Shown: piece after piece, positions 930 through 58,778 of the stretch | How the letters are laid out: the number at the start of each line of letters is the position of its first letter | Position numbering within the stretch: the first letter of the stretch is position 1 | Origin: an uncultured bacterium | GTDB taxonomy: Bacteria > Fermentibacterota > Fermentibacteria > Fermentibacterales > JCC-6 | Assembly: GCA_964426545.1 (NCBI GenBank) | Contig: CAYRQP010000001.1 | Coordinates: 42,322-106,321 of the forward strand | Length of the DNA: 64,000 bases | Reading direction: 5' to 3' | Notes under the pieces: model-generated | The model's database searches: none | What the model was told of the DNA's origin: nothing | Seen by the model: only the letters and a program-made list of their open reading frames with translations | Translations under genes and position numbers: made by a program

Positions 930-999
930 CTTCATCATCCTTTCGTTTAGGGTTAACATTAACCAGCACTAAAAAACTTTTTTAGCACAACGGTACAGT

Positions 1000-1015
1000 T
1001 GCAATATTCATGCCA
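1000..1015 (-). promoter_or_regulatory. sigma54 (-24/-12) promoter of pilA
   Basis: Minus strand TGGCAT-GAATA-TTGCA matches TGGCAC-N5-TTGCA; the adjacent gene encodes a sigma54 activator. Confidence 0.85.
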
Positions 1016-1156
1016 GATGCTAATTTATGTGTTTTAATGCCTGTGTTAGGGCATTATGCGCACATATGCAGCCTTAATACTGTGTATTCGAAGAATTGCG
1101 TTGATTGTGAGTTGCATATTGCAAGTACATGATAAAACACGGCCATTGTATCCAAC

Positions 1157-1207
1157 GACATGATTCCTTCGTGTCCCGTTTTGCTATTTTACCCTTCGTG
1201 TCCCGTT
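1157..1207. repeat. REP-like family C: GACATGATTCCTTCGTGTCCCGTT plus a 15-nt partial direct copy
   Basis: CCTTCGTGTCCCGTT at 1166-1180 and 1193-1207. 1157-1180 matches 47099-47122 at 22/24 nt. Confidence 0.7.
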
Positions 1208-1269
1208 AATAGCACCGCCATTTATTTCAGCAAAAGTACAGTACGTCACCACTTGCACCAAAAATGTTC

Positions 1270-4292: not shown

Positions 4293-4319
4293 ACTTTTTC
4301 TTCCGTTGATAATTACCGG

Positions 4320-5525: not shown

Positions 5526-5535
5526 ATCTCCTCCG

Positions 5536-6606
5536 TCAGATTATTTCCTGCCCTGAAATGATCATCTGTTCGAGTTCAAGCGGTTTGGACGACCTTTCAA
5601 GAGCAACTTCTCTTGTGATTTCTTTTTTCGAGTACAAATAATAGAGTGACTGGTTCATCGTATACATACCGTGCTTCTGTCCCGCCTGCATCATACCGTA
5701 TATCTGATGAAGTTTATCGGTCCGAATTGTTGCCTTTACGGCATTTGTGCATACAAGAACTTCAGCAACCAACAATCGACCGGTGCCCCTTGCTCGCGGT
5801 ACGAGTTGCTGTGTAATTACACCCAGAAGTACAAATGACAACTGGCTTCGAACCTGCTCCTGACTCGTTGCCGGAAATGTGTCTATTATCCTGTTAATGG
5901 ACTCATAGGTCGAGTTTGTATGGAGTGTAGCGAGAGTCAGGTGACCTGTTTCTGCAATATTCAGTGCAACCTGCATTGTCTCGAGGTCTCTCATCTCACC
6001 TATCAGCACAACATCCGGGTCCTGTCTGAGAACATATTTGAGTGAATCACCGAATCCAGACGTGTCCTGTCCGATCTCCCTCTGGTTCACGATTCCCTTG
6101 TCATGGTGATGAACATATTCAATTGGATCCTCAATAGTGATGATATGACACCTGCGAGTGTGGTTCACTTTACGGATGATAGATGCGAGTGTTGTCGATT
6201 TACCGCACCCTGTGGGACCTGTGACAAGAATAAGCCCCTGCCGTTTTTCTGAAAGTACCTTTACTGCATCCGGAAGTCCGAGTTCATCGAAGTCGAGAAT
6301 CTCATGCGGTATCGCTCTGATGGCACATGCCACACAGTTTCGCTGCATGAATACATTACCCCTGAACCGGGAGAGTCCTTTTATTCCGAATGCAAAATCG
6401 AGTTCCTTCTCCAGTTCGAAACGCTTTTTCTGCTCATCTTTAAGAAGGCTGTAGACAAGGTCCTGAGTATCTTCCGCTTCAAGCGGGTCATATTCCATTC
6501 GGACGAGTTCTCCATCAATTCTGAGAACCGGCGGTGCACCTACTGTCAGGTGAATGTCTGTAGCCCGTCTTTCCATCATTTCCTTTAAAAGTGTTTTGAT
6601 AAACAT
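5536..6606 (-). CDS. pilT: Type IV pilus retraction ATPase
   Basis: GPTGCGKSTT, TIEDPIEY, LRQDPDVVLIGEMRD, AETGHLTLATLHT. The AIRNLIRE motif reads AVKATIRT. Confidence 0.93.
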   Translation of the reverse strand: MFIKTLLKEMMERRATDIHLTVGAPPVLRIDGELVRMEYDPLEAEDTQDLVYSLLKDEQKKRFELEKELDFAFGIKGLSRFRGNVFMQRNCVACAIRAIPHEILDFDELGLPDAVKVLSEKRQGLILVTGPTGCGKSTTLASIIRKVNHTRRCHIITIEDPIEYVHHHDKGIVNQREIGQDTSGFGDSLKYVLRQDPDVVLIGEMRDLETMQVALNIAETGHLTLATLHTNSTYESINRIIDTFPATSQEQVRSQLSFVLLGVITQQLVPRARGTGRLLVAEVLVCTNAVKATIRTDKLHQIYGMMQAGQKHGMYTMNQSLYYLYSKKEITREVALERSSKPLELEQMIISGQEII

Positions 6607-6608
6607 GA

Positions 6609-8417
6609 TTAAGCTGATTCTCCTTCTTTGTCCTGCTCTTCTCTCATTTGTGCTGCAAGCTCGGTAACTGCTTCGAGAATCTCCGGGTCATCTTCTGCCG
6701 TAACTCTCTTAACCTCTTCAAGAGTGGTGATACCGGATTTCATTTTCGCCACAGCGTCCATTCTCAGGGTTCTCATTCCGTCTCTGACACCCATAACACG
6801 CAACTGTCCGGCAGTGACTCTGTTAATTATTGACTGCCTTACATTCTTTGTAACAGACAATACTTCATAGAGTCCGATTCTGCCTCTATAGCCGTATCCT
6901 GTACAGTTCGAACATCCGCCACCCTTGTAGGTCGTGACTCCCCGCATTTCTTCGGGGTCGACACCTACTGCAAGGAATTCGTCATCTGTGTACTCGTGGG
7001 GGTCCTTGCATTTCTTACATATCTTTTTCACAAGTCTCTGTGCCATAATTGTCCGTACCGCAGAAGCAACAAGGAACGGTTTTATTCCAATATCCACAAG
7101 CCTGTTCACCGTGCTTGGGGCATCATTGGTGTGGATTGTCGAGAATACGAGATGTCCTGTAAGTGCAGCCTTGATTGCAATAGTCGCTGTTTCGAGGTCG
7201 CGAATCTCTCCCACCATGATGATATTGGGATCCTGCCTTAATATTGCCCGAAGTGCAAAGGCAAAGTCGTAACCCATCGAGAAGTCTATCTGAGTCTGGG
7301 TAAGACCGTCTATATTGTATTCGACCGGTTCTTCCGCTGTGTGGATGTTTGTCTTCGGAGTATTCAGTGAACTCAATGCAGAATAGAGTGTGGTTGTCTT
7401 CCCGCTTCCGGTAGGTCCTGTAACCAATACAATTCCATAAGGTGAGTTCACACCTTTCATGAAGACTCCAAGTGCATCTTCAGGAAAACCAAGTTCACGA
7501 AGGTCGAATTCGAGACTGCCTCTGTCCAGAATTCGAAGAACTATCTTTTCGCCATTAACCGTTGGAACACAACTCACACGGAAGTCAATCCATCTTCCAT
7601 CTATCTTTGCCTTGATTCTGCCGTCCTGAGTCTTGCGCTTCTCGGCAATGTTCATGCCTGCCATGATTTTCAGTCTGCTGATTATCTGCGGCTGAATCTG
7701 CTTCGGTAGTTTTCGAACCGTGAAACAGGAACCATCGCGCCTGTATCGTATCCGCAGATGTCTTTCATAAGGTTCCACATGAATATCGCTAATTTCACTT
7801 CGGACTGCTCTTGCTATCATCTCATTCACATATTTAATGACAGGTCCGGAAGTAGCCATGGTATATTCGTCTTCGAGGTCATCTATATCACTTTCATCAT
7901 CGCTGTAATCCTGCAGGGTACCCACAATTTCAAGGTCATCGAGTTCATCATCATAGTCGAGAATAGTGTCTTCGACAGATACCAGGTCATCTATCTTTCC
8001 GTACAGTTCATCCTGTGCCCTGCGAACCGCTGAAGGTGCCGCTGCCTTGGCTATCACTTCATATCCTACCGCAAACTTGACATCATCGATTGCATAAAGG
8101 TCACCGGGAGAACCCATGGCGACATAGAAGTACTCACCGTCGAAACTCAGTGGAACCAGTAGAAATTTTCGTGCGATATCTTCAGGGAGTTTCTGCGTCA
8201 TTTCAGTCGAAATCGTAATCTCATCAAGAAATGCAGGTTCTACTGAGTATATCTCAGCAAGAAATTCAGTAATGAGGTCTTCAGGGATAGTACCCGTTGC
8301 AATCAGATTATCCGAAAGCTCTATCTCACCGGGACCAAACTCCCGACCGATATCCTCGATGTCCTCTTGAGTCACCATTCCGGATTCAAGCAGCATCAAT
8401 GCAAGTTTACTAAGCAC
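6609..8417 (-). CDS. pilB: Type IV pilus extension ATPase, paralogue 2 (degenerate N-terminal MshEN region)
   Basis: SDIHVEP, GPTGSGKTTT, LRQDPNIIMVGEIRD, TGHLVFSTIHTND, CKKC...CSNC zinc motif, GYRGRIG. Confidence 0.88.
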   Translation of the reverse strand: MLSKLALMLLESGMVTQEDIEDIGREFGPGEIELSDNLIATGTIPEDLITEFLAEIYSVEPAFLDEITISTEMTQKLPEDIARKFLLVPLSFDGEYFYVAMGSPGDLYAIDDVKFAVGYEVIAKAAAPSAVRRAQDELYGKIDDLVSVEDTILDYDDELDDLEIVGTLQDYSDDESDIDDLEDEYTMATSGPVIKYVNEMIARAVRSEISDIHVEPYERHLRIRYRRDGSCFTVRKLPKQIQPQIISRLKIMAGMNIAEKRKTQDGRIKAKIDGRWIDFRVSCVPTVNGEKIVLRILDRGSLEFDLRELGFPEDALGVFMKGVNSPYGIVLVTGPTGSGKTTTLYSALSSLNTPKTNIHTAEEPVEYNIDGLTQTQIDFSMGYDFAFALRAILRQDPNIIMVGEIRDLETATIAIKAALTGHLVFSTIHTNDAPSTVNRLVDIGIKPFLVASAVRTIMAQRLVKKICKKCKDPHEYTDDEFLAVGVDPEEMRGVTTYKGGGCSNCTGYGYRGRIGLYEVLSVTKNVRQSIINRVTAGQLRVMGVRDGMRTLRMDAVAKMKSGITTLEEVKRVTAEDDPEILEAVTELAAQMREEQDKEGESA

Positions 8418-8428
8418 TGCTATCCCCC

Positions 8429-10225
8429 TTACGAAGAAGCGATTGTTTCCTTGATGACCTCTTCAAAAGTAGTTTCCCCACGTTCGAGTTTCAAAAGTGC
8501 GCCTTCTCGAAGATTAACCATCCCCTTGGCAAGTGCCGCCTTTTCAATCTGAAGAGTGTTCGCATCGCTTTCAATAAGTGTTCGAATCTCCTCATCGATA
8601 GTCATCACTTCAAACAGACCAATTCTGCCCCTGTAACCTGTATTGTTGCAGTTGGAACATCCTGTACCTTCATACAGCGGTATATCCTTGAAACGTTCGG
8701 GGTCGACCTGGGCTTCTACAAAAGCGCTGTCGGGTATATCGACTTCTGTTCTGCACTGCTCACAAACCCTTCTGATAAGCCGCTGCGATGCAATGCAATG
8801 AAGTGAAGTACTGAGCATATAAGGTTCTGTCCCAATATCGATGAGCCTGTTTATCGTACTGGGGGCATCGTTCGTATGTGTTGTGGAAAGCACCAGGTGC
8901 CCTGTCAACGCAGCTCTGATTGCAATTTCACTTGTTTCCTTGTCCCGAATCTCACCAACCATAATTATATCCGGGTCCTGGCGCAGATAGGCTCGAAGAG
9001 CATTGGCAAATGTGAGACCTATCTCCTCTTTCATCTGAACCTGGTTTATACCTTTCAGGTTGAACTCCACCGGGTTTTCAGCGGTCATTATGTTAATGGT
9101 GATATCGTTCAATTCCGTAAGAGCTGAATACAGGGTGGTTGTCTTTCCGCAACCTGTAGGACCGGTAACAAGAACAATCCCGAACGGCCTGGTAATGCCC
9201 TTACGGAATTCTGCGAGAGCAGGCGGTTCAAATCCAAGTTTTTCGAGGTCGAGGACAACGGTGGAGCGGTCCAGAAGCCTGATTTCGACTTTCTCACCAA
9301 ACAGTGTGGGAAGTGTTGCAAGACGCATGTCGACATATCTGTCTCCGACCTTCACCTTCTGCCTGCCGTCCTGCGGCAAATTGTGTTCGGCTATGTCCAT
9401 GCCGCCGAGAATTTTCAGACGGCTGACCATCGCCATCCTGTATTTTCTGCTCGGACGCATTATTTCATGGAGAATCCCGTCTATTCTGAACCTGACCCTC
9501 ACATAGCGCTCAAATGGTTCAAAGTGGATATCACTGGCACCCCTGCGGACTGCATCCGCAATAAGACTGTTTACCAATTTTACAACCGGAGAATCGAAAA
9601 CATCGAGAGCGAGGTCTTCTTCACTGACTTCAACTTCATCCTCATCGCTGACGATCATAGATTCGAACACTTCATTCCCGATGAGCATCTCGTTCACTAT
9701 CTCATCTGAATCTTCTTCTCCACCTTTCACATCGACAATCGAAGTATCTTCTGTACTGCCGACTCTCGAACCTTCTGCATCGACGGGGACTATGGCTTCA
9801 CTTTCCGAATAAAGGCGAGTGAGTGCCCGTTTTACCATACTGGACGCACATATGTGAGCTTCTACTTCCATTCCAAGTGAGAAACGCAGGTCATCAATCG
9901 CAAATAGGTTCTGCGGGTCGGTCATAGCCACAATAAGGGTTTTACCATCGAGTTCGATAGGAATAACTTCGTACCGCCTTGCAATGTCTGCAGGAACAAG
10001 TTCAATTACTTCCGGATCAACATCTATCGTATCAAGGTCTGTACTGGAAATTTTGAGTTGTCTTGCCAGATAATCATTGAGGTCCTTTTCTGAAACAGCT
10101 TCAAGTTGAACGAGATGAAAACCAAGTTTCCCACCGTCGGTCTTCTGAATTTCAAGAGCCTGTTCGAGTTGTTCGTTCGTTATGAGACCGGATTTCAGGA
10201 GTAATTCACCGAGTTTTTCGGCCAT
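8429..10225 (-). CDS. pilB: Type IV pilus extension ATPase, paralogue 1 (N-terminal MshEN-like motif)
   Basis: KLGELLLKSGLITNEQLEQALEIQ, ASDIHFEP, GPTGCGKTTT, LRQDPDIIMVGEIRD, CEQC...CSNC. Confidence 0.92.
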   Translation of the reverse strand: MAEKLGELLLKSGLITNEQLEQALEIQKTDGGKLGFHLVQLEAVSEKDLNDYLARQLKISSTDLDTIDVDPEVIELVPADIARRYEVIPIELDGKTLIVAMTDPQNLFAIDDLRFSLGMEVEAHICASSMVKRALTRLYSESEAIVPVDAEGSRVGSTEDTSIVDVKGGEEDSDEIVNEMLIGNEVFESMIVSDEDEVEVSEEDLALDVFDSPVVKLVNSLIADAVRRGASDIHFEPFERYVRVRFRIDGILHEIMRPSRKYRMAMVSRLKILGGMDIAEHNLPQDGRQKVKVGDRYVDMRLATLPTLFGEKVEIRLLDRSTVVLDLEKLGFEPPALAEFRKGITRPFGIVLVTGPTGCGKTTTLYSALTELNDITINIMTAENPVEFNLKGINQVQMKEEIGLTFANALRAYLRQDPDIIMVGEIRDKETSEIAIRAALTGHLVLSTTHTNDAPSTINRLIDIGTEPYMLSTSLHCIASQRLIRRVCEQCRTEVDIPDSAFVEAQVDPERFKDIPLYEGTGCSNCNNTGYRGRIGLFEVMTIDEEIRTLIESDANTLQIEKAALAKGMVNLREGALLKLERGETTFEEVIKETIASS

Positions 10226-47054: not shown

Positions 47055-47211
47055 GGAGACATTCCTGCGCAGAAAGAAGACACTCCTCCTTCTGTAGGGA
47101 CATGATTTCTTCGTGTCCTGTTAGATCTGGTACTTGAATAAACGGCAGGTGCTAATAGGGGACACACCTCCTTGAAAGCAGGAACTCTTTCTGCGGAGGA
47201 ATGTCCCCATT
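47055..47211. repeat. Composite cluster of REP-like elements (inverted partial B, C, full B) between convergent genes
   Basis: 47055-47077 matches the reverse complement of the B 3' arm at 21/23 nt; 47099-47122 is family C; 47148-47211 is a full B copy. Confidence 0.8.
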
Positions 47212-47216
47212 AGTTG

Positions 47217-48857
47217 CTAGTTGTGCTCGATTGTCAGCTGACCCGGGCTCCAGTCCTCTGCAGCTTCAGGCTCGGTAATCTTAGCATAGATCGACCAGGT
47301 TCCTTCGGTTGCTCCCGTGCAGTCCCAGTTATACGCTTCATCTCCGCTCGGGACATCATATGCAATCGGATAGAGCGTTGTACCACCGGTGGAGTCTGTC
47401 GAATAGGAGAAATCAATCAGCACGCTATCCGGTGCATCGCATGTCCATTCAAGACGGTATGTCGTATCAGCTGTAGCACCACCTGCCGGTGGTGTAGTAA
47501 GTGTCAACAGGTATCCTGTATGATCTATTGTGAGTATGCCGGAACTCCAGTCAGTCATTGTATCGAATTCGTCATCGAAAGCACCGTAGATATACCAGCC
47601 CCCGTTTAATGCTTCCGCACAGTCCCAGATGTAATAGCCGGTATTGGGGATTTTCGTATCTATCACGAATAACTCAGCACTTACCGTGTCCTCGGAGAAC
47701 CAGAGATTCAGGTCAAACTCTGATGGAACTTCGGTATCCCATTCAATCTGATACTCCTCATCCGCTTCGGCTCCCTCTTTAGGCGGTGCTGTAATTTCAA
47801 ATGTATATTCGAAATCATGATTTATTGTTATCATACCTGCGCTGTAATCTGAACCTGTGTCTCCTTCTTCCAGGATTGTCCCGTAAACGTAGTATGTACC
47901 TTCTGGTACACCGAAACAGTTCCATTCGTAATCCCAATCTGCATGATCGAGTCCGGATACTATAGACACCAGTCCGCTACCGGGAAGACTGTCAGTATCG
48001 TAATACAGGTCAACAACAGCAGCTCCGCCGCTTGTAATCGAAGTCCATTCTATAGTATAGGTCGAATCTGCAGTGGCTCCGCTCAATGGAGGCTGTGTAA
48101 TTGACACTTGCGGAAGACTTCCGCCATGGAAGACCAGCAGCTGTCCATCGCTGAAATCATCTGCTTCCTCTTCCTCCCTTGAAGGTGAAGTACTTATGAA
48201 GTCTGAAGTCGCCTTAGATCCACCCTGAGTTGCAATTATGTAAATGTAATAGTATCCGACATCTATGCGGCTGCAGTCCCATTCATATTTATAAACATCC
48301 GAAAGGTTGTTGACTATTGAAACAGTATCGAGGGAAGTTGTGCTTGTACAACGGTAAACATCGAACTTCGGCTTCGAGAATCCTGTTGTTGTCCACTCGA
48401 TTGTGTAAGTCGAATCCACTTCGGTAATGCCCTCCGGCGGTGCGGTAATCCTAACCGTATACTGCGGAGCGGCATGGTCGAATGCTATTGAGCCGGTACT
48501 GTAAACTGCTATTGGTTCAGCCCCTGTGCCTTCAACCATTGCACGAATGTAAACAATGTCTTCATAAACCTGTACACAGTTCCATTCGTGGGACCCCGTT
48601 GCAGGAAGTGAATCTGCAATGAACTCCAGTCCTGTGGACGGATATAAGTCCGTATCATAAGTAAGTGTTACTGAAGCATCTGAAACAGCACCGGTGGTTT
48701 CCCACATAATCACATAGGATGAGTCTACCCCCGTAACCGATGTATCTGGCCGTGTAATCTCAATCGACATTACAATCAGCTCTTCGGGGTTATTGCAGGA
48801 AATGATAAGCACTGATATTAGCAAAGTTAAGAAAAGGAATAGTCTACTGTAATTCAT
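47217..48857 (-). CDS. Lipoprotein with five tandem ~100-aa Ig-like beta repeats
   Basis: GAAGGAG + ATG 48857, lipobox LIIS|C. Five repeats of IT.PP....D..Y.I.W ... W[ND]C ... Y[IV]Y ... S.G...[IF].H. Confidence 0.85.
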   Translation of the reverse strand: MNYSRLFLFLTLLISVLIISCNNPEELIVMSIEITRPDTSVTGVDSSYVIMWETTGAVSDASVTLTYDTDLYPSTGLEFIADSLPATGSHEWNCVQVYEDIVYIRAMVEGTGAEPIAVYSTGSIAFDHAAPQYTVRITAPPEGITEVDSTYTIEWTTTGFSKPKFDVYRCTSTTSLDTVSIVNNLSDVYKYEWDCSRIDVGYYYIYIIATQGGSKATSDFISTSPSREEEEADDFSDGQLLVFHGGSLPQVSITQPPLSGATADSTYTIEWTSITSGGAAVVDLYYDTDSLPGSGLVSIVSGLDHADWDYEWNCFGVPEGTYYVYGTILEEGDTGSDYSAGMITINHDFEYTFEITAPPKEGAEADEEYQIEWDTEVPSEFDLNLWFSEDTVSAELFVIDTKIPNTGYYIWDCAEALNGGWYIYGAFDDEFDTMTDWSSGILTIDHTGYLLTLTTPPAGGATADTTYRLEWTCDAPDSVLIDFSYSTDSTGGTTLYPIAYDVPSGDEAYNWDCTGATEGTWSIYAKITEPEAAEDWSPGQLTIEHN

Positions 48858-49014
48858 TGTGCTCCTTCTGAGTATTTTCACATTGTATTCACTAAACATC
48901 CAGGCAGTTAATCACCTTAACCAAAACTGAATGTACTTATAATCATATTACTATAATAATATAAAAATTTTCGCCTGAAGTATAGTGCATATAATTTCAT
49001 TAATTCTTGCCTGT

Positions 49015-49650
49015 TTACAGCACCGAATAGACCAGATTGGGAGGAGAACTTATCCTCGATGCCCTGCCTTCACCTTCAGCACCTACCTCTATTGTAAACT
49101 GTATCTGCCTGATTCTGTCGAGATAACTGAACCCGTCGAGTTCGCTGCACATGATCTCATCTCCGTTGCTGTCGAAGTATGTGAATATCATTCTTCCCTG
49201 AACCGAACCGTGATACACAACATTGCCTGCCGCATCTGTAACAGTAAGCATGCCATCCCCGTCTCTGCTCAGCGTCAGCGTATCCTCCAGACCGGGATTT
49301 CCTCTCCCTGATATATCAGCGATGAATGTAACAGCAGTCGAATCAGCATGTAGAATAGGATGCCAGTCTTCACCGACACTATAGGCTCTCAAACCCGCAT
49401 TTTGAATAAACTCCTCTATCTCATCCAAAGCCAAACGCTGATTCGTTTCAATGCGATTATGCTCAATGCTGCTGTCCACAACATCTTTCTGGTTCAGAAA
49501 GAACAGATATACGGAAGCAACCAGGATGCTGAATATCGCTACTGTGATTGTCAGTTCGAGGAGGGTGAAGGCTATTCTATAAATCGGTCGTACAAGAAAT
49601 CCAACAGTTTCTTTTTTTAGCAATAACCCAGTGAACAAGGTGGGTTTCAT
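49015..49650 (-). CDS. Minor pilin, PilW-like (short paralogue of the giant pilin N-terminus)
   Basis: RIA|FTLLELTITVAIFSIL with E5; shares DWHPI, F.AD, FTY...G, IR.IQ and SP.NL with 52594-56526. Confidence 0.8.
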   Translation of the reverse strand: MKPTLFTGLLLKKETVGFLVRPIYRIAFTLLELTITVAIFSILVASVYLFFLNQKDVVDSSIEHNRIETNQRLALDEIEEFIQNAGLRAYSVGEDWHPILHADSTAVTFIADISGRGNPGLEDTLTLSRDGDGMLTVTDAAGNVVYHGSVQGRMIFTYFDSNGDEIMCSELDGFSYLDRIRQIQFTIEVGAEGEGRASRISSPPNLVYSVL

Positions 49651-49677
49651 ATCCGACCTTTCGGCATCATCACGAAA

Positions 49678-51090
49678 TCAGAACATATTCTCATCGATAT
49701 CGCGACCTTCATAATCAGGGTCTTCCTGCCAGGATGTCATCTTCCACCTGTTGAGAGATGGAAAATGCGGCGGATGCATTGATGTAAGCAGGACATTCCA
49801 GGCTATCGCAAGCTCATAACCTCTGTTTCCGCTGCCAAGATATCCCATCGACCTCTGAATCAAACCGCCGAAAATAGTCACCCGGACAGATGGGTCAGGC
49901 TTGGAGGGGTTTTCAGCTTTCAGGCATCCGCCGGGAATTGCAACTGATGCATGTATCTGGATGCTGCGGTCTGTCTCTATATGCCAGGGAGGACTCCAGT
50001 CGTCTCCCCCCGGGTCATTTGCGATGACAATATCACCCAGGGAAACTATTCCCATAGGCCCCGATGCTCCGGAAAGCGGTGCATCTATATCACCTGCTAT
50101 GTAAATGCTGCCGGTCGAAATTATCGTCACCGGATGATCCGGTCTGCCTGCAGTTTTCAGATAACAGGCATGAGCACCGCCCTGAATGAATACAACGGTT
50201 TTACCTTCAAGCGATATGATGTCCGGCGTTGACTGTTTGTCGCGCTTCGACAGCAATCTGTTCCCGTCGATAATAACCCTTTCAGGCATGAACAGGCAGG
50301 TTCCCTGCTGACTTGCTTCGAATGCAAGTGCAGTAAACCATGAGTCGAAAAGACTGAAGTCTATGCTGTCAGCCTGCACTTCCCAGTATGGTCTTCCCTG
50401 GATATGATGGCTATACGGTCTTACCCAGACATTCGAACCCGGCGGATGCGGGTTAGCGGAATAGCCGGCCCCTGTGAATAAGTAACTGCTCTGAGATGTC
50501 GAAACAGCTTTGACAAACGGGTCATCAGTCGAATCGGGTGTCATGCTTGAAAACTGGATCGTACCGTTGGAGTGCACGGGACCATCTATAACCCGCCTGT
50601 CAGTGAAGAACCCCGAAGCAATTCCGTAATCGACCAAAAGAGCATAACGGGAAGGATAATCTGGTGATGTCCTTATCACAACATCTCTCGTTACTCCGTT
50701 CGAAAGTCCCCTGCTGCGTATCTCGACCCCACCTATGACATTTGGGAGATAGTTGGAGTCATATGGGTCGATTACTACCCATGCTTTTCCGCATCCGCCC
50801 GGAAGTTCCATCCACTGAAGGCTGTCTCCCTGCATCGAATAGGGCTCCCTGAATTCCGGAGAAGCTCCTTCTTCCGCCAGTTGATAAATTGTCAAATTGG
50901 CACCTGCTTCAGCCGATGCAAGTGCCCTTATTCTGTTCTGTGTGTGTATGTGTGACCTGATATTGGTCTGAAATATGATATACAGGGCGCTTGACAGCAC
51001 GATGAGAACAAGCGTGAGCATAAGAGTGATTGCAAGGATAGCACCTTCGCGACCTTCTACTGAAACCCGATCGATAGACTCATCTCTCAT
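49678..51090 (-). CDS. PilX-like minor pilin (no E5), paralogue 2
   Basis: REG|AILAITLMLTLVL, ALASAEAGA, SRYALL, DGPVHSNG, IVIANDP, PPHFP. Confidence 0.78.
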   Translation of the reverse strand: MRDESIDRVSVEGREGAILAITLMLTLVLIVLSSALYIIFQTNIRSHIHTQNRIRALASAEAGANLTIYQLAEEGASPEFREPYSMQGDSLQWMELPGGCGKAWVVIDPYDSNYLPNVIGGVEIRSRGLSNGVTRDVVIRTSPDYPSRYALLVDYGIASGFFTDRRVIDGPVHSNGTIQFSSMTPDSTDDPFVKAVSTSQSSYLFTGAGYSANPHPPGSNVWVRPYSHHIQGRPYWEVQADSIDFSLFDSWFTALAFEASQQGTCLFMPERVIIDGNRLLSKRDKQSTPDIISLEGKTVVFIQGGAHACYLKTAGRPDHPVTIISTGSIYIAGDIDAPLSGASGPMGIVSLGDIVIANDPGGDDWSPPWHIETDRSIQIHASVAIPGGCLKAENPSKPDPSVRVTIFGGLIQRSMGYLGSGNRGYELAIAWNVLLTSMHPPHFPSLNRWKMTSWQEDPDYEGRDIDENMF

Positions 51091-51095
51091 ACGGA

Positions 51096-52586
51096 CTAGT
51101 ACTTATCAAGAAGAAGCATGCTTTCAGTCAGGTCCCTGTTTTCCTCCCAGTATATAATTTCCCACTCTCCTGTCTGTGGAAAATACGGCGGCTGCATGCT
51201 CATTAATCTCGTATCGTAGTAGATAGTCGAAATTAAACCTGCAGTACCACCGCCCCCGTATGAGACTGAAGTAATGCCTTCCGTATCGATCATGTAACCG
51301 CCCATGATACTCAGATCGACAGCCGGAGAAGGGTAATACGGATACTCTGCAATCAACTCACCGGTAAGAGCCATGAATACTCCATCGAAAGTAAAATCGG
51401 AATTAGTCATTATCTGCCATGGAGAATCCCAGTCTGCACCCTCCGGGTCATTTGCTATGACAATATCACCGTATGCGGTAAAGAGTCCCAGCATATCTGT
51501 ATTGTTCTCATCGAGCACATCGGGATTCTGATAGATATGTGGTCCTGCAATGTAAATGTGCCCGTTGCATCCTATCGTAAGTGGGATTCCTGCCCCGCCG
51601 CTACCGGGATACTCTTTTACATAAATCCTATCATTCGTGCCATTATCTATCCACACAACAGGTTTTGCATAAGTACTCATGTCATAAGTAGATACAATTC
51701 CACCATTGGTTTTCCGAACCAGCAGGGTGTCATTCGTAATTAGTATTCTCGTTCCGCTGGGAGCCTGTATTGATGACAATGTCAGTCCACCGCTACTCGC
51801 ATGGCTCGGTATGGACTCCCAGTTAACTTCATCGGGACCGAAGTCAATTTCCTCTGCACTCAGGTCGAAATAAGGCTCACCCAGCAGCATTTTCTGGATG
51901 GGCTGAATCTGAAGATAACCATACTCGGGAGTTGTTGCCTGAGTGCCGGGGTCGGTACCATAATAGTAATAGCCGCATGTGAGATTCAGACTGTAGAAAT
52001 ACGGGTCATTCGAAGTACCGGACGAAGAACTGTAAATACAAATTGGGCCATTCGCATGGAAAGGTCCATCGAACCGATATCCGTCCCCGTAATAATCATC
52101 AGTGTTAGGATTGTTCAGAAAACAGGCGAATCGGGCGAAGTTCAGTGGCATCATCATAACTTCCATGCCGTACATATAGTTCGTGTTGTTCAAGCGGTCC
52201 TTTGCCAGTACCCTGACACCATAGGCATTAGCCTCCGTGACATAGGCATTGTTATTGTGCGGGTCTATCACGACTTTCACTACTCCCAGATTTTCATACT
52301 CAAGGTTATACCATCCGGGTGTCGTACTGTCGGGCATAAACATCACTGGTGTGATTCCTCCCGGCACCTGAGTACCTTCGAGAATCATGTGTGAAGCAAG
52401 TGCCGCTCCAGCTTCAGCGGTATACATCGCGACCAGTTCATCTTTTTCCCACTCGTGTGCACCAATATTTGCCTGAAAAAGAACATATATAGCAGCGGAA
52501 AGAAGGACGAATACAACTGTGACTATTGCTGCCGCTACCAGTGCTGAACCATTTTCAAACCGGGCTTTTCTTGTCTTTGTCATCAT
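51096..52586 (-). CDS. PilX-like minor pilin (no E5), paralogue 1
   Basis: Start moved to ATG 52586 (or 52583); ENG|SALVAAAIVTVVF, AMYTAEAGA, FDGPFHANG, IVIANDP, PPYFP. Confidence 0.78.
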   Translation of the reverse strand: MMTKTRKARFENGSALVAAAIVTVVFVLLSAAIYVLFQANIGAHEWEKDELVAMYTAEAGAALASHMILEGTQVPGGITPVMFMPDSTTPGWYNLEYENLGVVKVVIDPHNNNAYVTEANAYGVRVLAKDRLNNTNYMYGMEVMMMPLNFARFACFLNNPNTDDYYGDGYRFDGPFHANGPICIYSSSSGTSNDPYFYSLNLTCGYYYYGTDPGTQATTPEYGYLQIQPIQKMLLGEPYFDLSAEEIDFGPDEVNWESIPSHASSGGLTLSSIQAPSGTRILITNDTLLVRKTNGGIVSTYDMSTYAKPVVWIDNGTNDRIYVKEYPGSGGAGIPLTIGCNGHIYIAGPHIYQNPDVLDENNTDMLGLFTAYGDIVIANDPEGADWDSPWQIMTNSDFTFDGVFMALTGELIAEYPYYPSPAVDLSIMGGYMIDTEGITSVSYGGGGTAGLISTIYYDTRLMSMQPPYFPQTGEWEIIYWEENRDLTESMLLLDKY

Positions 52587-52593
52587 CTGCCCC

Positions 52594-55500
52594 CTATTCC
52601 GCATCCCCGAAGACCTGTACATTGTCGAGATTCCATCCGCCACGCACTCCATCCGAACCGGAACTTTGGACATATCTGATGAAGAAATAATCGGCATTAT
52701 CATCATGCCCTGCTTCCATTGCAGTACTCATCTCAATCTCTTCCGTGTCCCAGTAGGAGTGATTTGTATTATAGGTTCTAATGAGTATCCAGTCTTCTTC
52801 ATCTGTCGGATAGTCTTCATCTTCGCTGAATCCAATGAAGACAAGAGCGTCATCTCCCCCTGAAAGCCGTACACACCTGTCGAATCGAAGTATAACAGAC
52901 GATTGTTCAGAGTCGGGCATCTCGTATGCAGGAGATATAAGATACGCCCATGCATCATTGTTGTAGTAACCATCATCTGAGAGGTCAGTACCCGCTATGG
53001 AACCGTCATTTTCAGGAACGAGCCAGGGATCTACGTCCGGAACAACGACTGGTGCACCAAACTCCCAGTCATCATTGGTGCCTGCGTGAGTCCAGGCTGT
53101 CGGAATTCCACCTGCCGCATCGGCAAAACTGTAGATTCCCTCAAAATCAGAATATACATACTCACTGTTCAGCGGAGATTCCGAAATGCTATTGGTCGAA
53201 CCGAGTCCGATATCACATGCTATTTCAGCTATTGATGTTCCAATCTTCATAAACGGGAGGTCATTGCTTCTTACAAGGACTGACGGGTCGTAATTGTCAT
53301 TAGAACTGCGCCTGCACATGTAGTCACTCGTCTGTATATGTTCCCAATACACGATGTCCTCCGAGGATGCGGAATCAGCTTTTTCAATCTTCACTGCAAG
53401 CTGCTGTCCTTCCGGAAGGTAGAATATCGAGTCGAGAGAAATCGACTGCCAGCCGCTCTCCTGAACCTGAAGAGAAACGCCGTCTGCTGCAAGTGTCATG
53501 CTGTATGTATTCCATTCTCCGGCTCCCGTGAATGCAGAGTCATCAGGGATGGAAGACATATAAATATCGACATTGTTGAATGTGCAGTCAGGGTAGTCAC
53601 TTGTGACATTGAAGGCTATAGACTGAATCGAATAGACATCGACTGTTGTTTGTATCAAAAGGTCATCTACCTTCCAGAATCCGTCTGTCACTGTGGCTGC
53701 TGCACCGAAGACAAATCGGATTATCACCAAATTGCCTGCAAATGATGAAAGGTCAGCTGAAGCAGTTTGCCAGACATATCTCGAACCTGCCCCATAGTAT
53801 ATGTGCGTATTCGCAGGTGCCGGATGTTCGGGACTGCAGATACCGGTATAGCCCAGCGGAAGAATGCTCCAGGTTACTCCGTTATCTGAACTGATCTGAA
53901 CATAACCGCCGGCGCTGTTCGACTGGGTGTTATACTGATGCTTGAAGGAAAAGAAAGTCTCTATTGCTGTCGATGGAATATACACCGACGGTGTCTGAAG
54001 ATAGCAGTAGGAACTGTCGCTGAAACCACCTTCGTCATTCTGAATTTCCCAGTAATCATTGGATGATTCACTGCCTATTCTCCAGTCATCGATACCTGTA
54101 TAACCCTTCTTATCCGAATAAAGAGTATTATGCTCCCAGCCGGGGACAGTGTTTTCATCAGTTAAGGAAGCAATCTCGATATCATCCCATCCTCTTCCGT
54201 AATTAGGCCAGCTTCCCTGATCATACTGACTCAGCATTATTTCAAATGAAGAACTGAATTCCTGGTCATTGGAACGGGCAGCAGCATCGAGGTCCAGAGC
54301 AAGAGTATTCCATTCCAATCCGGAAGTCTGCGGTTGGGCAATGCTAACATACACCGAATCATCATGTGTTACTGTGAGAATAATATTGTCGAGTGAAATT
54401 CCGTCTGAAGCATTGAAAAGGTCAGCCTGATAATTGCCGTACTGTCCGAAGATTATGTAGATGCTGCTGTCCGGCATTGAGGAAGGTGTAAAGGAGACTG
54501 AGCGGTCATGCCAGCTGTAATCTGAATAGTTGTTGGGATTTAAGTATTCGATTATTTCGAAGCTACCGTCAATATCTCCCGTTGAATTCCAACCGACAAA
54601 ATCAGATTGAGTCCCTGAATCATGATTGTCATCACTGTGGTCGTGGAAACGGTAGTGCACCGTGAAGACATCGCCGTTGCTGTATCCGACCGTTGAAGCC
54701 TCAATCATCACCCGGTTATATGCATACTGTCCCTGATATTGAGCATCCATCGTGATAAACTGCCCGTTGCCCTGCCAGGTCGACGGAGAGTGAACTCTCA
54801 CCCGCCCGCTTCCCGAATAGTGTATGTCTCCGGGCGTTCTGCCGCGAACCGGCTCGAAGTCGATTGTGAACAATGTATCTGTAGAAGTACTCTCCACATG
54901 CAGATATACTCCGTCGAGATCATGCAAGGTCTCCCATGTGCCGGCTTTTGAGTCCATCTTCAGTATAAGATTATCCGTATTCTCATTGAAATCTGAAAGG
55001 TCGACATTCCATACCGCCATATTCTGCACTGACGGTCCGGTTACGTCCCTGTCCAATCGCAGGAATGTCATCCCGCCCTCCGTGATAATACCGCACCTTC
55101 CGTTTATCGGACCCGGAGTATATTGCCACGAAGGATTGAACTTTGATTCAAAATCTTCGGAATATACAATTGTGGTGTCAGTTGCTATAGAGGGATCTAT
55201 TCCATCCTCCCATAATGTCACGAGCATCTCTTCTGTATATGCAACATCGAATGTCTCTTCTTCCGTCAGTGCTTCTCCAGGGTCTTCGTCCGGAGTATAG
55301 GATATCCATTCGATTGCATTCTTAAACAGCACCCATCCTCCATTCTCCGTGAACTGGGTTGCCTGCCAGGGAGAGAAGTGAACACGTCTTCGAGTCGGCA
55401 TGGCTTCATTGATTACAGAGACACCAGAGGAATCATCTACGGCATCAATTCTCGTGAGTAGTGTCGTTCCTGATCTGAAGTCATACATGCTCGAATGATA

Positions 55501-56526
55501 TCCCGAGTCTGCATATACTGAAAAAGTCGAAGGCAGATCTCTGTTCAACGGGTGTGCCGGTTCCTCGACAAGCATTGAATTCTCATCAATAGTACCGTAA
55601 CTGTCTCCCATTAGGAATGTCTCGGCTGCTTCTCTTCCGTTCATTGTAATTATAGGTACTTCGAGAGACCTGAAAAAATCGACGTGGAGGTGAGTTCCGC
55701 TCGAAACATGTCTGAGAATGAGAAGACTGATGTCATCATAATTGTATGATGTAAGCATGGCATCGGTCAGCTGTGTAGTTGTATACCCCCAGAAGCTCAA
55801 ACGGTCTATCATTGCCTGCTCTTCCGCACTTGCAGCAGGGACTGAATCTGCTCCTGCCACATTGAATACGATATATCCCTCCTGTGCAGGTGGTCCGTAA
55901 AATCCCGGATTGATATTGTGATTAATTCCAAGATTGCGGGGGGATACAGTTGTCTGCATTACTGTCTGATATATATCATCACCGCTTTGTGCTGTCAGAG
56001 TGATCTCAATCTGAATATGTCTGATCTGGTCGCGCATTGCTTCACCCTGGGGATCATTTATATCGAGAGTTGATCCGTCTTCATTGAGATATGTAAACTC
56101 CAAATGTGTGATATATCCGTCACCTGTAAGTTTGACATAGTCCTCCCTATCCCGAATTTCAACATAGCCGTCATCCAGCAACTCTATCATCCGGTAATCG
56201 GTCGAATCGAGACTCTTCATAGGTTCCCAGTCGGCGTAAAACTCCAGACTGTCTTCTCCGACTGCAACTATCGGATGCCAATCATCTTCATCCCAGCCCC
56301 CCTGAGGCATGTATCCGGCCCAGATTATCGAGTTTTTCATTTCCGATAAAGTCAGTCTCCCTGCGGTAGTCAGTTGATTCTGCATACTCGCAAAGTGAAA
56401 ACTCTCAGTTCCCCGCAGGAGAAACAGCATTACAGCACCAAGAACCACAAGAAGAACAACAACTACAATAAGCAGCTCAATTAGAGAAAATGCCGGTTTA
56501 CCTTTTATAAGTTTAAGACTCATCAT
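52594..56526 (-). CDS. Giant (1,310 aa) PilW-like pilin with multi-domain passenger, putative tip adhesin
   Basis: KPA|FSLIELLIVVVVLLVVLGAV with E5. A ~200-aa pilin part, then an alpha/beta domain and several acidic beta-sandwich modules ending GISLDNI, GWDDIEI, WKVDDL and GWNLDNV. Confidence 0.82.
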   Translation of the reverse strand: MMSLKLIKGKPAFSLIELLIVVVVLLVVLGAVMLFLLRGTESFHFASMQNQLTTAGRLTLSEMKNSIIWAGYMPQGGWDEDDWHPIVAVGEDSLEFYADWEPMKSLDSTDYRMIELLDDGYVEIRDREDYVKLTGDGYITHLEFTYLNEDGSTLDINDPQGEAMRDQIRHIQIEITLTAQSGDDIYQTVMQTTVSPRNLGINHNINPGFYGPPAQEGYIVFNVAGADSVPAASAEEQAMIDRLSFWGYTTTQLTDAMLTSYNYDDISLLILRHVSSGTHLHVDFFRSLEVPIITMNGREAAETFLMGDSYGTIDENSMLVEEPAHPLNRDLPSTFSVYADSGYHSSMYDFRSGTTLLTRIDAVDDSSGVSVINEAMPTRRRVHFSPWQATQFTENGGWVLFKNAIEWISYTPDEDPGEALTEEETFDVAYTEEMLVTLWEDGIDPSIATDTTIVYSEDFESKFNPSWQYTPGPINGRCGIITEGGMTFLRLDRDVTGPSVQNMAVWNVDLSDFNENTDNLILKMDSKAGTWETLHDLDGVYLHVESTSTDTLFTIDFEPVRGRTPGDIHYSGSGRVRVHSPSTWQGNGQFITMDAQYQGQYAYNRVMIEASTVGYSNGDVFTVHYRFHDHSDDNHDSGTQSDFVGWNSTGDIDGSFEIIEYLNPNNYSDYSWHDRSVSFTPSSMPDSSIYIIFGQYGNYQADLFNASDGISLDNIILTVTHDDSVYVSIAQPQTSGLEWNTLALDLDAAARSNDQEFSSSFEIMLSQYDQGSWPNYGRGWDDIEIASLTDENTVPGWEHNTLYSDKKGYTGIDDWRIGSESSNDYWEIQNDEGGFSDSSYCYLQTPSVYIPSTAIETFFSFKHQYNTQSNSAGGYVQISSDNGVTWSILPLGYTGICSPEHPAPANTHIYYGAGSRYVWQTASADLSSFAGNLVIIRFVFGAAATVTDGFWKVDDLLIQTTVDVYSIQSIAFNVTSDYPDCTFNNVDIYMSSIPDDSAFTGAGEWNTYSMTLAADGVSLQVQESGWQSISLDSIFYLPEGQQLAVKIEKADSASSEDIVYWEHIQTSDYMCRRSSNDNYDPSVLVRSNDLPFMKIGTSIAEIACDIGLGSTNSISESPLNSEYVYSDFEGIYSFADAAGGIPTAWTHAGTNDDWEFGAPVVVPDVDPWLVPENDGSIAGTDLSDDGYYNNDAWAYLISPAYEMPDSEQSSVILRFDRCVRLSGGDDALVFIGFSEDEDYPTDEEDWILIRTYNTNHSYWDTEEIEMSTAMEAGHDDNADYFFIRYVQSSGSDGVRGGWNLDNVQVFGDAE

Positions 56527-56537
56527 TCCATTTTCTC

Positions 56538-56915
56538 CTAAAATATCGTGCTTAGGGAAATACTGTCGGATCCGGCCGGTGTTCCGTATTTAACAGTACA
56601 TTTCACGAGTCTTGCATTTGGGCTTTCGGTAACTGAACTTATTGTCATATATCTATCGAAATCATCATCTATTATCTCCGGTCCTATAACGGTTCCCGGA
56701 TCTATCGAACCCACATCGACAGTTCTGTATAACTCAAGTCCCTGTCTTGATATCTCCAAAGCCCTCGTTGCCGAGTCAATTGTTTGTGACTGGTTAATCA
56801 TGTTCAGGAAGAAGAACGCTACTCCGATTATAAGAACAGCAAGTATCGCACTTGCTATCATCAGTTCTATCAGAGTGAATCCTCCTGAATGTCTCACCTT
56901 AACTGCTTTCAGCAT
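56538..56915 (-). CDS. Minor pilin, PilV-like
   Basis: Start ATG 56915; SGG|FTLIELMIASAILAVLIIG; 125 aa. Confidence 0.82.
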   Translation of the reverse strand: MLKAVKVRHSGGFTLIELMIASAILAVLIIGVAFFFLNMINQSQTIDSATRALEISRQGLELYRTVDVGSIDPGTVIGPEIIDDDFDRYMTISSVTESPNARLVKCTVKYGTPAGSDSISLSTIF

Positions 56916-56973
56916 TCTGTCCCCGCTTTCAATATAAATATAATGTAACTGTAATATATAATCATTATTTCCC

Positions 56974-57327
56974 TTAATTCGTTCCCGCATAAATCCGGCG
57001 GACAAGTTCGACACGCCCACCCGACTCCGAAGTTACCAGAACTCTGATTTCTCTTTCTGTGTTCGACAGAGTGGCAATTTCCGTTTCAACTGTAAAACTA
57101 TTCAACCCTCCCGGGCTTTCAATAAGGTAAGTCCCGTCTTCGGGTAACTCATCCATTGTCTCGTAATCCGTCATTGTTATCCTCGCAAGAGTGAGAATAT
57201 CTCTTCTGGTTTCAACCAATGTTCTTTTCTCTATGAAATATCCTGCTGAAATTGTCAGTGAGAGAGCAACAGTCAATACCACTGCAGCAGATATGACAGT
57301 TTCGGATAGAGAGAATCCCTTTCTCAT
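56974..57327 (-). CDS. Minor pilin, PilV/GspI-like
   Basis: MRKG|FSLSETVISAAVVLTV with E5; 117 aa. Confidence 0.78.
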   Translation of the reverse strand: MRKGFSLSETVISAAVVLTVALSLTISAGYFIEKRTLVETRRDILTLARITMTDYETMDELPEDGTYLIESPGGLNSFTVETEIATLSNTEREIRVLVTSESGGRVELVRRIYAGTN

Positions 57328-58745
57328 CTAATCGAACTCCCCCCCGATGCTACAATATTGGTTCTACCAGTGGTCGGGTATATGCAGAACTCATATTCAT
57401 CGATTAGCACCGGCTCGCAGCCGGGTATTCCCGTCCTTACTTCGATGAGAACTTTCCGGGCATCCCGTCCGCCGGGTTCTGCCTGAATATCGAGACGGTC
57501 ATCGTGCAGGACAGCAATATCCGCCCTGCCTGATAAATTGTAATCACCGATTATTCCTGTAAATTCAGATCTCTGATCATTCTCTGCATACATTACAGAA
57601 TCATCGGCTCCACTGCTAAAGTAAACATCGTTCCATCCAAATATCCTGCCTTCGTGACCACTCAGTAATTGTCCTGCTGCAGGAAGCGGTGCAAATCCGT
57701 TCCAAAAGAGTTTTCTCCATGAATACATGCCGTTACTGTTGCACCACAATCCGCCAAGACCGTATCGGCCTTCAATGTAACCCCATCCTGCAAGCTCCGA
57801 ACCACCTGCTCTATCGTGCTGCAGTACTTCCCTTCCTGCAAGATAACAGGTCATTCCATCTTCGTATATCCATGCAAGGTCATCTTCTCCGTTCAAGTCG
57901 AAATCTCCGGTGAAGTAATCGAGCAGTACAGTATCCGACGTACCTGCAGAAACTCGAACACCACTCGAAACATCACCGTATAGTTTACCGTTGGGCATAA
58001 TTACCGGACAGGTGCCTTCCGGAGATGTTAAGGTAAGAACTTTTCCCGATTCAGGGAATACTGCATATCCTGCCCCCGTAAATTCTGCTATCACGATTTC
58101 CTGTTCTTCGTCGATAATGCCTGAAGTAAGTACACAATTCTCTGACCATATCCCGGACGGGATACTGTTCCGAAGCAGTGTGCCGTTTCTGTCTATCAGG
58201 AATAACGAATCTCTCTCATCATACCGACAGATAAGCACAGCTTCATATTCTCCGCCAGTGTTTCCATATACTTCCCATGAATCAGGTGCTTCTGATATCT
58301 CTATTGAAAAAGTCTGTGATACTTCAGTTTCGCCGGACGCAAAGAAGCAGGAATAGAGAATATTATCCGCTATCCCGGCAACCATCATTCCGCCTGTTGT
58401 TCCCACTGCACTGACATCCGTTAACTCAGGAATCACATAACTCATCTTCACATCACTGATATATTCTTTTTCGAGTAGTCTAATCTCGGTAGAATATCCC
58501 CCCAGAATAAACCTCGGGGGTTCTTCTCCTGGACCCAGTTCATCATTCCGCTGCATATTCACATACTTCTCGAGAGCACTTTTCTGTGTAAGAGATGCCT
58601 GTGCCAGTTCTTCGCGAACTTCTTGACGCTCTGTAATGGATGAAATGTACCCGAAAAGTATGGCAGCCGAGAGCATTGCAGCTGCAGATGCAAAGACAGC
58701 CATGGTGAGAACAGCTCCGCTTCTACTACTTATTCTATATTTCAT
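57324..58745 (-). CDS. PilX/GspK-like pilin-signal protein with inserted FG-GAP-like region
   Basis: Start ATG 58745; RSG|AVLTMAVFASAAAML (no E5). GDFDLNGEDDLA and GDYNLSGRADIA resemble FG-GAP/VCBS Ca-binding loops. Confidence 0.6.
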   Translation of the reverse strand: MKYRISSRSGAVLTMAVFASAAAMLSAAILFGYISSITERQEVREELAQASLTQKSALEKYVNMQRNDELGPGEEPPRFILGGYSTEIRLLEKEYISDVKMSYVIPELTDVSAVGTTGGMMVAGIADNILYSCFFASGETEVSQTFSIEISEAPDSWEVYGNTGGEYEAVLICRYDERDSLFLIDRNGTLLRNSIPSGIWSENCVLTSGIIDEEQEIVIAEFTGAGYAVFPESGKVLTLTSPEGTCPVIMPNGKLYGDVSSGVRVSAGTSDTVLLDYFTGDFDLNGEDDLAWIYEDGMTCYLAGREVLQHDRAGGSELAGWGYIEGRYGLGGLWCNSNGMYSWRKLFWNGFAPLPAAGQLLSGHEGRIFGWNDVYFSSGADDSVMYAENDQRSEFTGIIGDYNLSGRADIAVLHDDRLDIQAEPGGRDARKVLIEVRTGIPGCEPVLIDEYEFCIYPTTGRTNIVASGGSSIR

Positions 58746-58778
58746 AATACCTCTCAACTAACTTCCACTGTAAATTGA

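Follow-up and report, generated by a model that had tools for sequence, protein, structure and literature searches.

An operon of duplicated PilW-type and predicted solenoid pilins, conserved across the uncultured order Fermentibacterales, as a candidate type IV pilus tip unit

Background

The gene sets closest to the one described here are the GspH-I-J-K tip and its counterpart FimU-PilV-PilW-PilX(-PilY1) (PMC7541494), the pilA1-pilA2-pilA3-comZ genes of Thermus thermophilus (PMC6561018), the solenoid PilX proteins of cyanobacteria (PMC13759059) and the modular pilins of Streptococcus sanguinis (PMC8179133; PMC9934059). Here, we describe a locus of the same general kind in an uncultured bacterium of the order Fermentibacterales (Fermentibacterota), located on a stretch of 64,000 nucleotides of contig CAYRQP010000001.1 (assembly GCA_964426545.1) that is called the window throughout. 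To our knowledge, this phylum has no cultured member. Eight co-oriented open reading frames (ORFs), tightly spaced or overlapping, occupy the minus strand of the window between 47217 and 58757; from first to last, they are designated p477, p117, p160, W1, XA, XB, W2 and the lipoprotein gene.

The Gsp and Fim/Pil sets resemble this operon in gene order, in the size classes of their products and in an apical subunit that lacks the glutamate at position 5 (Glu5) (PMC7541494), and the I-like p117 matches XcpV. Unlike those sets, the present one gives no match to the GspK alpha-domain, has its J- and K-position genes duplicated and contains p477 and the lipoprotein gene as two extra genes. In T. 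thermophilus, small pilins are likewise followed by a larger pilin and then by ComZ, which was published as a tip pilin having a pilin fold with a solenoid inserted (PMC6561018). ComZ (PDB 6qvi) and the modeled XB are alike in a triangular, ice-binding-protein-like solenoid placed before the last strand and in the lack of a Glu5 motif. Compared with Thermus, however, two solenoid pilins (~29% identical) appear to stand in tandem here, and the preceding pilin carries a payload of 1100 amino acids (aa).

Cyanobacteria keep two deeply split subfamilies of solenoid PilX lineage-wide alongside one machinery, and solenoid PilX was proposed to replace PilY1 as the cap in these organisms (PMC13759059). 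PilV splits along with PilX there, and genetics assigned the two sets to the priming of two filaments (PMC13759059), whereas the present locus has one I-like pilin, a duplicated PilW-type partner and a single operon. In S. sanguinis, the modular pilins PilB (vWA) and PilC (lectin), with PilA at the tip, have binding modules grafted onto an N-terminal pilin module (PMC8179133; PMC9934059), and two bulky modular pilins belong to one tip gene set, as in the W1/W2 type here (PMC8179133). Such modular pilins were published with a quoted size extreme of 860 aa (PMC8179133); in contrast, W1 has 1310 aa, bears ThuA/glutaminase-like and MAM/CBM-like modules and belongs to a diderm host. The Fermentibacterota (formerly Hyd24-12) genome paper found type IV pilus genes with PilFind and, in the portion accessible, goes no further (PMC5030696). 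No description of the operon was found in the accessible passages on Fermentibacter pili, although some of its genes may be among the PilFind hits in Supplementary Data 2 of PMC5030696.

Results

Two duplications in one operon

The original prediction, made from the letters of the window, described seven consecutive co-oriented genes with class III-type signals and read them as two PilV, two PilW and two PilX proteins forming two alternative tips. These ORFs were confirmed at 49015-58757 on the minus strand, and the lipoprotein gene follows as an eighth. W2 is indeed paralogous to the N-terminus of W1, with which it aligns over W1 residues 10-180 (27% identity, E 2e-8), and all of the motifs quoted for the pair (DWHPI, F.AD, FTY...G, IR.IQ and SP.NL) lie in the alignment. 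Similarly, XA and XB (536 and 470 aa) align over their full length with 29% identity (E 2e-52) and share the motifs IVIANDP...DW..PW.I and PPYFP/PPHFP, as had been proposed. The probable start of XA is Met41 at 52586, 7 nt past the W1 stop, giving a protein of 496 aa. The four genes are arranged in mirrored order, W1-XA-XB-W2.

Class III signals (PF07963/TIGR02532) comprise a short leader, Gly at -1, Phe or Met at +1, Glu at +5 and a hydrophobic helix of ~20 residues. They were found in four of the seven genes, those with Glu5 (p117, p160, W1 and W2, the last two deviating at -1), and the claim did not extend to p477, XA and XB, in which Gly is followed by a hydrophobic helix without Glu5, as in the GspK/PilX_N type. 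Pfam and NCBIfam recognized the prepilin N-terminal motif in p160, W1 and W2 only: the Pfam N_methyl scores were 32.5 bits for p160, 21.9 bits for W2 and 19.9 bits for W1 (cut-off 21.2), and W1 reached 17.3 bits with TIGR02532 (cut-off 16.3). Despite its KGFSLSE motif, p117 matched none of the Pfam or NCBIfam hidden Markov models. Both W proteins carry Ala at -1 (AFTLLE and AFSLIE), as originally noted. The residue is present in W1 (56490-56500), in W2 (49565-49575) and in their sister-genome orthologues, whereas Gly occupies the position in every other orthologue examined. Ala at -1 is a poor substrate residue for prepilin peptidases, so the W1 and W2 prepilins of this genus may be processed slowly or in another way.

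The two small pilins did not prove to be a pair of PilV paralogues. BLASTP of p117 against p160 found nothing, and their profile-profile alignment consisted of the 53-column N-terminal helix only. Based on a search of the PDB, the p117 family profile matched the globular part of type II secretion protein I (5bw0_B, E 0.0015; 5vtm_V, E 0.0053) over profile positions 36-103. These matches are weak but specific, being the sole pilin matches, and by them p117 is assigned to the GspI/PilV class. The p160 profile reached the N-terminal helix only and no GspI structure in the PDB; p160, which has orthologues in all 12 of the relatives' loci that were fetched, may be FimU/GspH-like by position. Because p117 and p160 differ in class, there is a single set of small pilins, and the proposed "2+2+2" composition does not hold.

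Predicted folds of XA and XB

The model of XB (mcbcdac28d1fa; predicted local distance difference test (pLDDT) 87.1, predicted template modeling score (pTM) 0.80) comprises a helix at residues 11-74, a pilin sheet at ~93-143, a beta-solenoid at 144-433 and a final strand at 449-456 that lies back in the pilin fold. Foldseek against the PDB returned three chains at E<=1e-3, all of them Thermus ComZ 6qvi (E 1e-8). In VIA, XB was matched to ComZ with Z 14.0 (316 aa), to the ice-binding protein FfIBP with Z 13.6 (root-mean-square deviation (rmsd) 3.1 Å, 192 aa), to S. sanguinis PilA with Z 9.6 and to EpsI with Z 7.2; a pilin match, 7o5y, spans residues 44..462. As modeled, an ice-binding-protein-like beta-solenoid interrupts the pilin fold of XB, and XB would belong to the ComZ-like class; XA is provisionally placed in the same class by its homology to XB. 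A complex prediction for XB with W2 scored 0.07 against a mark of 0.32, which is not evidence either way.

In sequence-profile searches of the PDB, the XA/XB alignment gave nothing significant, the likeness to ComZ being undetectable at this level. DUF4900 (PF16241) scored 24.6 bits on XB, under the cut-off of 29.4, and XA matched neither DUF4900 nor PilX_N; among orthologues, below-cut-off DUF4900 matches occurred in three of eight XB proteins and PilX_N (PF14341) in one of eight XA proteins. A profile search with XA/XB retrieved 3481 cluster representatives at E<=1e-3. Among 80 distant matches at this threshold, 61 carried DUF4900 and 16 carried PilX_N, indicating that the family is widespread and poorly annotated. 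DUF4900 and PilX_N were again seen in the look-alike clusters of the Atlas. A related-locus search with XB by itself yielded no relative in genome_contigs.

A third paralogue, X3, occurs in relatives and not in this genome (L035:7324-8607, L036:7293-8558 and L037:7054-8430). It consists of the XA/XB solenoid with an ordinary signal peptide in place of the pilin helix, and no pilin genes lie nearby. Therefore, the solenoid also exists as a free secreted protein.

A search with PF05567 (PilY1) gave no match in this genome, nor in any of 14 control genomes (0/14). A tip without PilY1 is plausible if XA and XB are ComZ-like solenoid pilins, since this class was proposed in print for the capping role of PilY1. 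The first product of the operon, p477, has an N-terminus reading SG/AVLTMAVF... without Glu5, and its domain contains conserved, FG-GAP-like, Asp-rich motifs (GDFDLNGEDD and GDYNLSGRAD). Orthologues of p477 were present in 11 of the 12 relatives' loci. FG-GAP matches to this family were weak, under the cut-off and confined to two of eight orthologues. The p477 profile found nothing significant in the PDB (best E 0.1, an FG-GAP-like blade), and the Atlas search gave scores of 0.77 only, under the lead level.

W1, a giant modular pilin

W1 consists of a pilin module (~1-205, ending in SPRNL), an alpha/beta part (~217-413) and a series of jelly-roll beta-sandwiches (~430-1310). The model of residues 200-1310 (m01a40bc76ce5) had a pLDDT of 82.6, and its Foldseek matches included reelin repeats (E 8e-14) and the ThuA-like 4pxy. 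In VIA, the ~217-413 part was matched to 1i7q_B (Z 17.2, rmsd 2.5, 175 aa) and to the ThuA-like 4jqs (Z 15.9), and the jelly rolls to the meprin MAM domain 4gwm (Z 15.8) and the CBM 8jiy (Z 13.9). By model comparison, the jelly rolls resemble MAM, CBM, ephrin-receptor and reelin-B domains; additionally, InhA-like_MAM scored above the Pfam cut-off in three W1 orthologues. These domain models and fold matches agree with the earlier proposal of a giant W protein that carries adhesin-like modules on a pilin module, and as modeled W1 fits the modular-pilin concept of PMC8179133 at a very large size.

A class I glutamine amidotransferase was considered for residues ~217-413 and rejected: the fold fits, but the Cys-His-Glu triad is lacking. 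No Cys occurs in W1 residues 217-413, and the alignment has no conserved Cys there. Because of this lack of cysteine, the part is not catalytic, and it is classified as a ThuA/GIFT-like non-catalytic module.

W2 and the lipoprotein gene

The end of W2 lies just past PPNL, the conserved motif at the close of the pilin module, and the short form of another lineage ends likewise. Compared with its nearest long orthologue, it lacks the C-terminal ~780 aa; an orthologue of 208 aa in the sister genome (64% identity) has the same end. Consisting of a pilin module only, the window W2 is not a modular pilin, and its ~990-aa orthologues carry MAM-like matches. An assembly artefact was ruled out as the source of the short form: in an independent study (run X5), a contig of 245 bases runs across the junction, spanning the W2 stop and the lipoprotein start with zero differences. 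The short W2 therefore exists in nature.

The lipoprotein has a lipobox-like LIISC and a Kre9_KNH-like Ig domain (40.5 bits, Pfam). Its gene follows W2 in all seven relatives' loci with a long W2, often overlapping it or lying within ~40 nt, and was not seen at the five with a short or absent W2.

Conservation and descent within the order

Adjacency of XA and XB was the rule within the order (33 of 34 genomes) and was not seen in the six genomes of other families; the single genome of the order without the pair has X3 only, as a stand-alone paralogue. Across the 12 relatives' loci, the order p477-p117-p160-W1-XA-XB is constant, and the part after XB varies. W2 has 967-993 aa in seven of these loci, with a C-terminal part homologous to W1 ~456-963; it has 194 aa in one, is short and frameshifted in another and is absent in three, all of a genus here called g2. 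The W2 query, run on 70 genomes from the phylum, detected open frames of 972-1018 aa in 15 genomes and intact short frames of 195-260 aa in eight genomes of several genera. Within g2, a long-W2 query found the W1 N-terminus only in five of five genomes, the W2 query gave a single W1-type match in 21 of 26 genomes, and XA and XB were both present in all six genomes of the adjacency survey.

These counts run counter to two elements of the original prediction. The system is not designed around one adhesin-bearing and one bare tip, as W2 is usually large in relatives (the 15 genomes above), and a consistent pairing across relatives is contradicted by g2, in which XB is retained where W2 was not found (5/5 and 21/26 genomes).

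The frameshifted W2 belongs to locus L022 of a single-contig genome (G027), in which a short W2 is split over two reading frames at ~6377-6917; it is either a pseudogene or an assembly indel error. The g2 loci L024, L030 and L033 encode a W1 of only 785-851 aa, which keeps the ThuA-like and C-terminal parts without the middle region, ~430-980 of the window W1. The long W2 of other genera retains mainly this middle region of W1. The W1/W2 payload is assembled from separable blocks.

In a tree of the pilin modules, the W1 and W2 groups were separated with support of 100/100, and the window W2 was sister to a 990-aa W2 (95/90). In a quick tree of the solenoid proteins, XA, XB and X3 each formed one clan (Shimodaira-Hasegawa-like approximate likelihood ratio test 93, 100 and 98), and the XA and XB subtrees mirrored each other. 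The W and X duplications predate the radiation of the order and are old and vertically inherited; in this respect, the predicted duplication of minor-pilin/tip genes is real, ancient and maintained. The short W2 is a derived yet maintained state of this genus, and a pilin-only W2 is the derived state of few lineages. XA and XB are core parts, and W2 is an accessory, its cargo and companion lipoprotein being subject to gain and loss.

One tip complex or two

We hold with middling confidence that the window operon is one type IVa pilus priming/tip unit with duplicated subunits. The most economical model, for and against which our confidence is evenly divided, is a single priming/tip complex on p117-p160-W1 with a solenoid cap. 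By analogy with GspI-J-K, PilVWX and ComZ-PilA2, the minor pilins would assemble through their N-terminal helices on the inner-membrane platform, and the resulting complex would start the polymerization of the major pilin and then stay at the distal end. XA, XB or both would take over from PilY1 as the filament cap, and the ThuA-like and MAM/CBM-like modules of W1 would act as an adhesin that binds a polysaccharide or a particle surface. W2 would serve as an optional second payload carrier. We consider XA and XB together in one composite complex, or interchangeable on the p117-p160-W1 base, slightly more likely than two fully separate cognate sets.

Several points weigh against the single-complex model. 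Two ComZ-type solenoids in one tip may clash, according to a steric argument in PMC6561018, and the long-term retention of both X genes keeps a two-filament reading alive. That reading also fits the two tandem pilB and two pilA genes of the genome; the second pilA (G000:C1:108935-109402, minus strand) lies 2.6 kb past the window end, and the two paralogues share 72% identity, with ~38 identical residues at the mature N-terminus. Shallow alignments, one of 21 and one of 24 rows, underlie the two models (W1 and XB), and what the W1 modules bind is guessed from their fold class. W1 and W2 are provisionally placed in the PilW/GspJ class by position before a K-class gene and by module size: NCBIfam gspJ matched neither protein, and among PDB entries the profile of the W2 pilin module reached the N-terminal helix of generic pilins only. 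In addition, p477 and the lipoprotein are two operon genes outside the assigned folds or roles, and no RNA runs are listed among the sequencing runs holding the locus.

It is quite possible, albeit not probable, that the operon instead encodes two exclusive tips, XA-W1 and XB-W2 (or XB-W1 where W2 was lost), built by the same machine. In this case, p117 and p160 would be common to both, with possible differential use of the pairs of pilA and pilB genes. The mirrored gene order speaks for such tips, and the persistence of both X copies since before the order radiation suggests non-redundant roles. All of the genes lie in one packed operon, however, so no separate regulation is visible; a scan for promoters and terminators found sites no more numerous in the locus than in shuffled sequence. 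Precedents are available: ComZ-type solenoids were argued to fit at the apex only (PMC6561018), two cyanobacterial PilX/PilV subfamilies prime two specialized filaments (PMC13759059), and Myxococcus has several minor-pilin/PilY1 sets (10.1101/2021.07.28.454143). The present operon, by contrast, offers only one I-like and one other small pilin for two tips, and a strict XB-W2 cognate pair is not required, since XB persists without W2.

The presence of two pilA paralogues and tandem pilB is also in favor of two tips, and the original prediction had matched the tandem motors to them. The pilB pair was detected in 32 of 34 relatives of the order, including all six g2 genomes searched, and does not co-vary with W2; it is therefore uninformative on W2 or on two tips. 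One unrelated genome has three tandem pilB-like genes. A broader version, in which two different tips or a two-solenoid tip arise from one operon, XA and XB draw on one set of small pilins, each cap can recruit its own PilW-type payload pilin, the pilA paralogues and tandem pilB motors work for the two filament types, and the second payload is swapped, trimmed or discarded with the niche, is put forward only tentatively and is on the unlikely side.

A pilus system rather than a type II secretion system

The genome (2.18 Mb) is 94.8% complete, so a gap is possible for gsp-type genes. Its inventory includes one secretin, located beside pilM, one prepilin peptidase, three PilB-like ATPases and three PilT-like ATPases. 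A genome-wide motif scan detected pilin-like N-termini in the tip operon and the two pilA genes only. GspL (PF05134) and the GspK alpha-domain (PF03934) had no match in the genome, while the controls matched. The third PilB/GspE-like ATPase is an orphan (G000:C11:31956-33146) located between a 457-aa familyless protein and a pyrimidine-nucleoside phosphorylase, and most relatives have an orthologue of it. It was considered as a marker of a type II secretion system and rejected because of these unrelated neighbors. With one secretin and one peptidase, no GspL or GspK and an orphan third PilB, the genome has a single type IVa pilus system. The tip-operon proteins are minor pilins of this system and not part of a separate secretion system.

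The alternative that the operon encodes pseudopilins in the order GspH-I-J-K that export proteins is accordingly improbable. The p117 profile does match type II secretion protein I, one W1 homologue was labeled "type II secretory pathway pseudopilin PulG" by its source, and the pilin domain of ComZ was described as GspK-like (PMC6561018), but neither GspL nor the GspK domain was detected, and the only secretin adjoins pilM. The orphan ATPase on contig C11 could be taken as a further trace of type II secretion, yet its surroundings do not bear this out, and PilT retraction ATPases are present. Moreover, the motif scan found no GspG-like extra major pseudopilin, and a J subunit bearing a payload of 1100 aa fits poorly with a piston that works in the periplasm.

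That XB and W2 are a decaying duplicate, with the 211-aa W2 a pseudogene remnant, is very improbable: W2 did lose ~780 aa, is frameshifted in G027 and was not found in most g2 genomes, but XB has remained intact and is shared by 33 of 34 relatives of the order, the short W2 stops cleanly at the pilin-domain boundary, as does its 208-aa orthologue, and intact short frames occur in eight genomes of several genera.

Coordinates and neighboring features

The coordinates of the tip operon and of the pilus machinery cluster are collected in Table 1.

Table 1. Positions in the window of the tip-operon genes and of the pilus machinery genes
Feature	Position	Strand	Description
p477	57324..58757	-	First operon gene; PilX_N/GspK-type N-terminal helix and ~430-aa domain
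p117	56974..57327	-	Small minor pilin, KGFSLSE; putative GspI/PilV class
p160	56538..57020	-	Small minor pilin, GGFTLIE; probable start Met36 at 56915
W1	52594..56526	-	1310 aa; predicted modular pilin in PilW/GspJ position
XA	51096..52706	-	536-aa ORF; putative ComZ-like beta-solenoid minor pilin, PilX/GspK position
XB	49678..51090	-	470 aa; predicted ComZ-like beta-solenoid minor pilin
W2	49015..49650	-	211 aa; second PilW-type pilin, pilin module alone
Lipoprotein gene	47217..48899	-	560 aa, Ig-like repeats; last gene of the operon
Pilus machinery cluster	534..10225	-	39 kb from the tip operon; Pfam
pilA1	534-959	-	Major pilin ORF
pilR	1270-2640	-	Pfam
pilS	2637-4292	-	Pfam
pilC	4320-5525	-	Pfam
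pilT	5536-6606	-	Pfam
pilB (tandem, first)	6609-8417	-	Pfam
pilB (tandem, second)	8429-10225	-	Pfam

An SprA-like protein of 1885 aa (type IX secretion translocon family) is encoded on the minus strand at 10346-16003, directly upstream of the tandem pilB genes. At the other end of the tip operon, the intergenic region between the SHMT gene and the lipoprotein gene (47080-47215) contains a short dispersed repeat, of which pieces of 21-129 bases were found at 48 other genomic places, frequently where contigs end. In metagenomes, contigs accumulate and are interrupted at this region, with a depth ~10 times that of the flanks. It looks like a repetitive extragenic palindromic (REP)/miniature inverted-repeat transposable element (MITE)-like element and a source of assembly breaks. 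DNA of the locus is present in marine and seawater metagenomes from two studies. By lysyl-tRNA synthetase (63% identity), the nearest named record is a metagenome-derived "Candidatus Fermentibacteraceae" genome, and the W2 orthologue is attributed by one source to an FCB-group bacterium.

Implications

The locus draws on published design principles (modular pilins, solenoid caps substituting for PilY1, more than one minor-pilin set), and its value is therefore comparative rather than conceptual. What is new is that a mirrored W-X-X-W arrangement, including two solenoid caps, is fixed throughout an uncultured order; also new are the composition of the W1 payload and the repeated, clean trimming of the second payload. 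This repeated, clean loss of the W2 payload, with retention of the pilin module, sets a minor pilin's structural role apart from its cargo. The order-wide pair of caps provides a natural test of whether duplication in the PilX class leads to two kinds of pili or to one more complex tip; if the two-tip reading is true, the two-filament principle of cyanobacteria would recur here within a single operon. For the organisms themselves, the 1310-aa W1, with its ThuA-like and MAM/CBM-like tip modules, is a candidate means by which these non-flagellated fermenters attach to particles or polymers.

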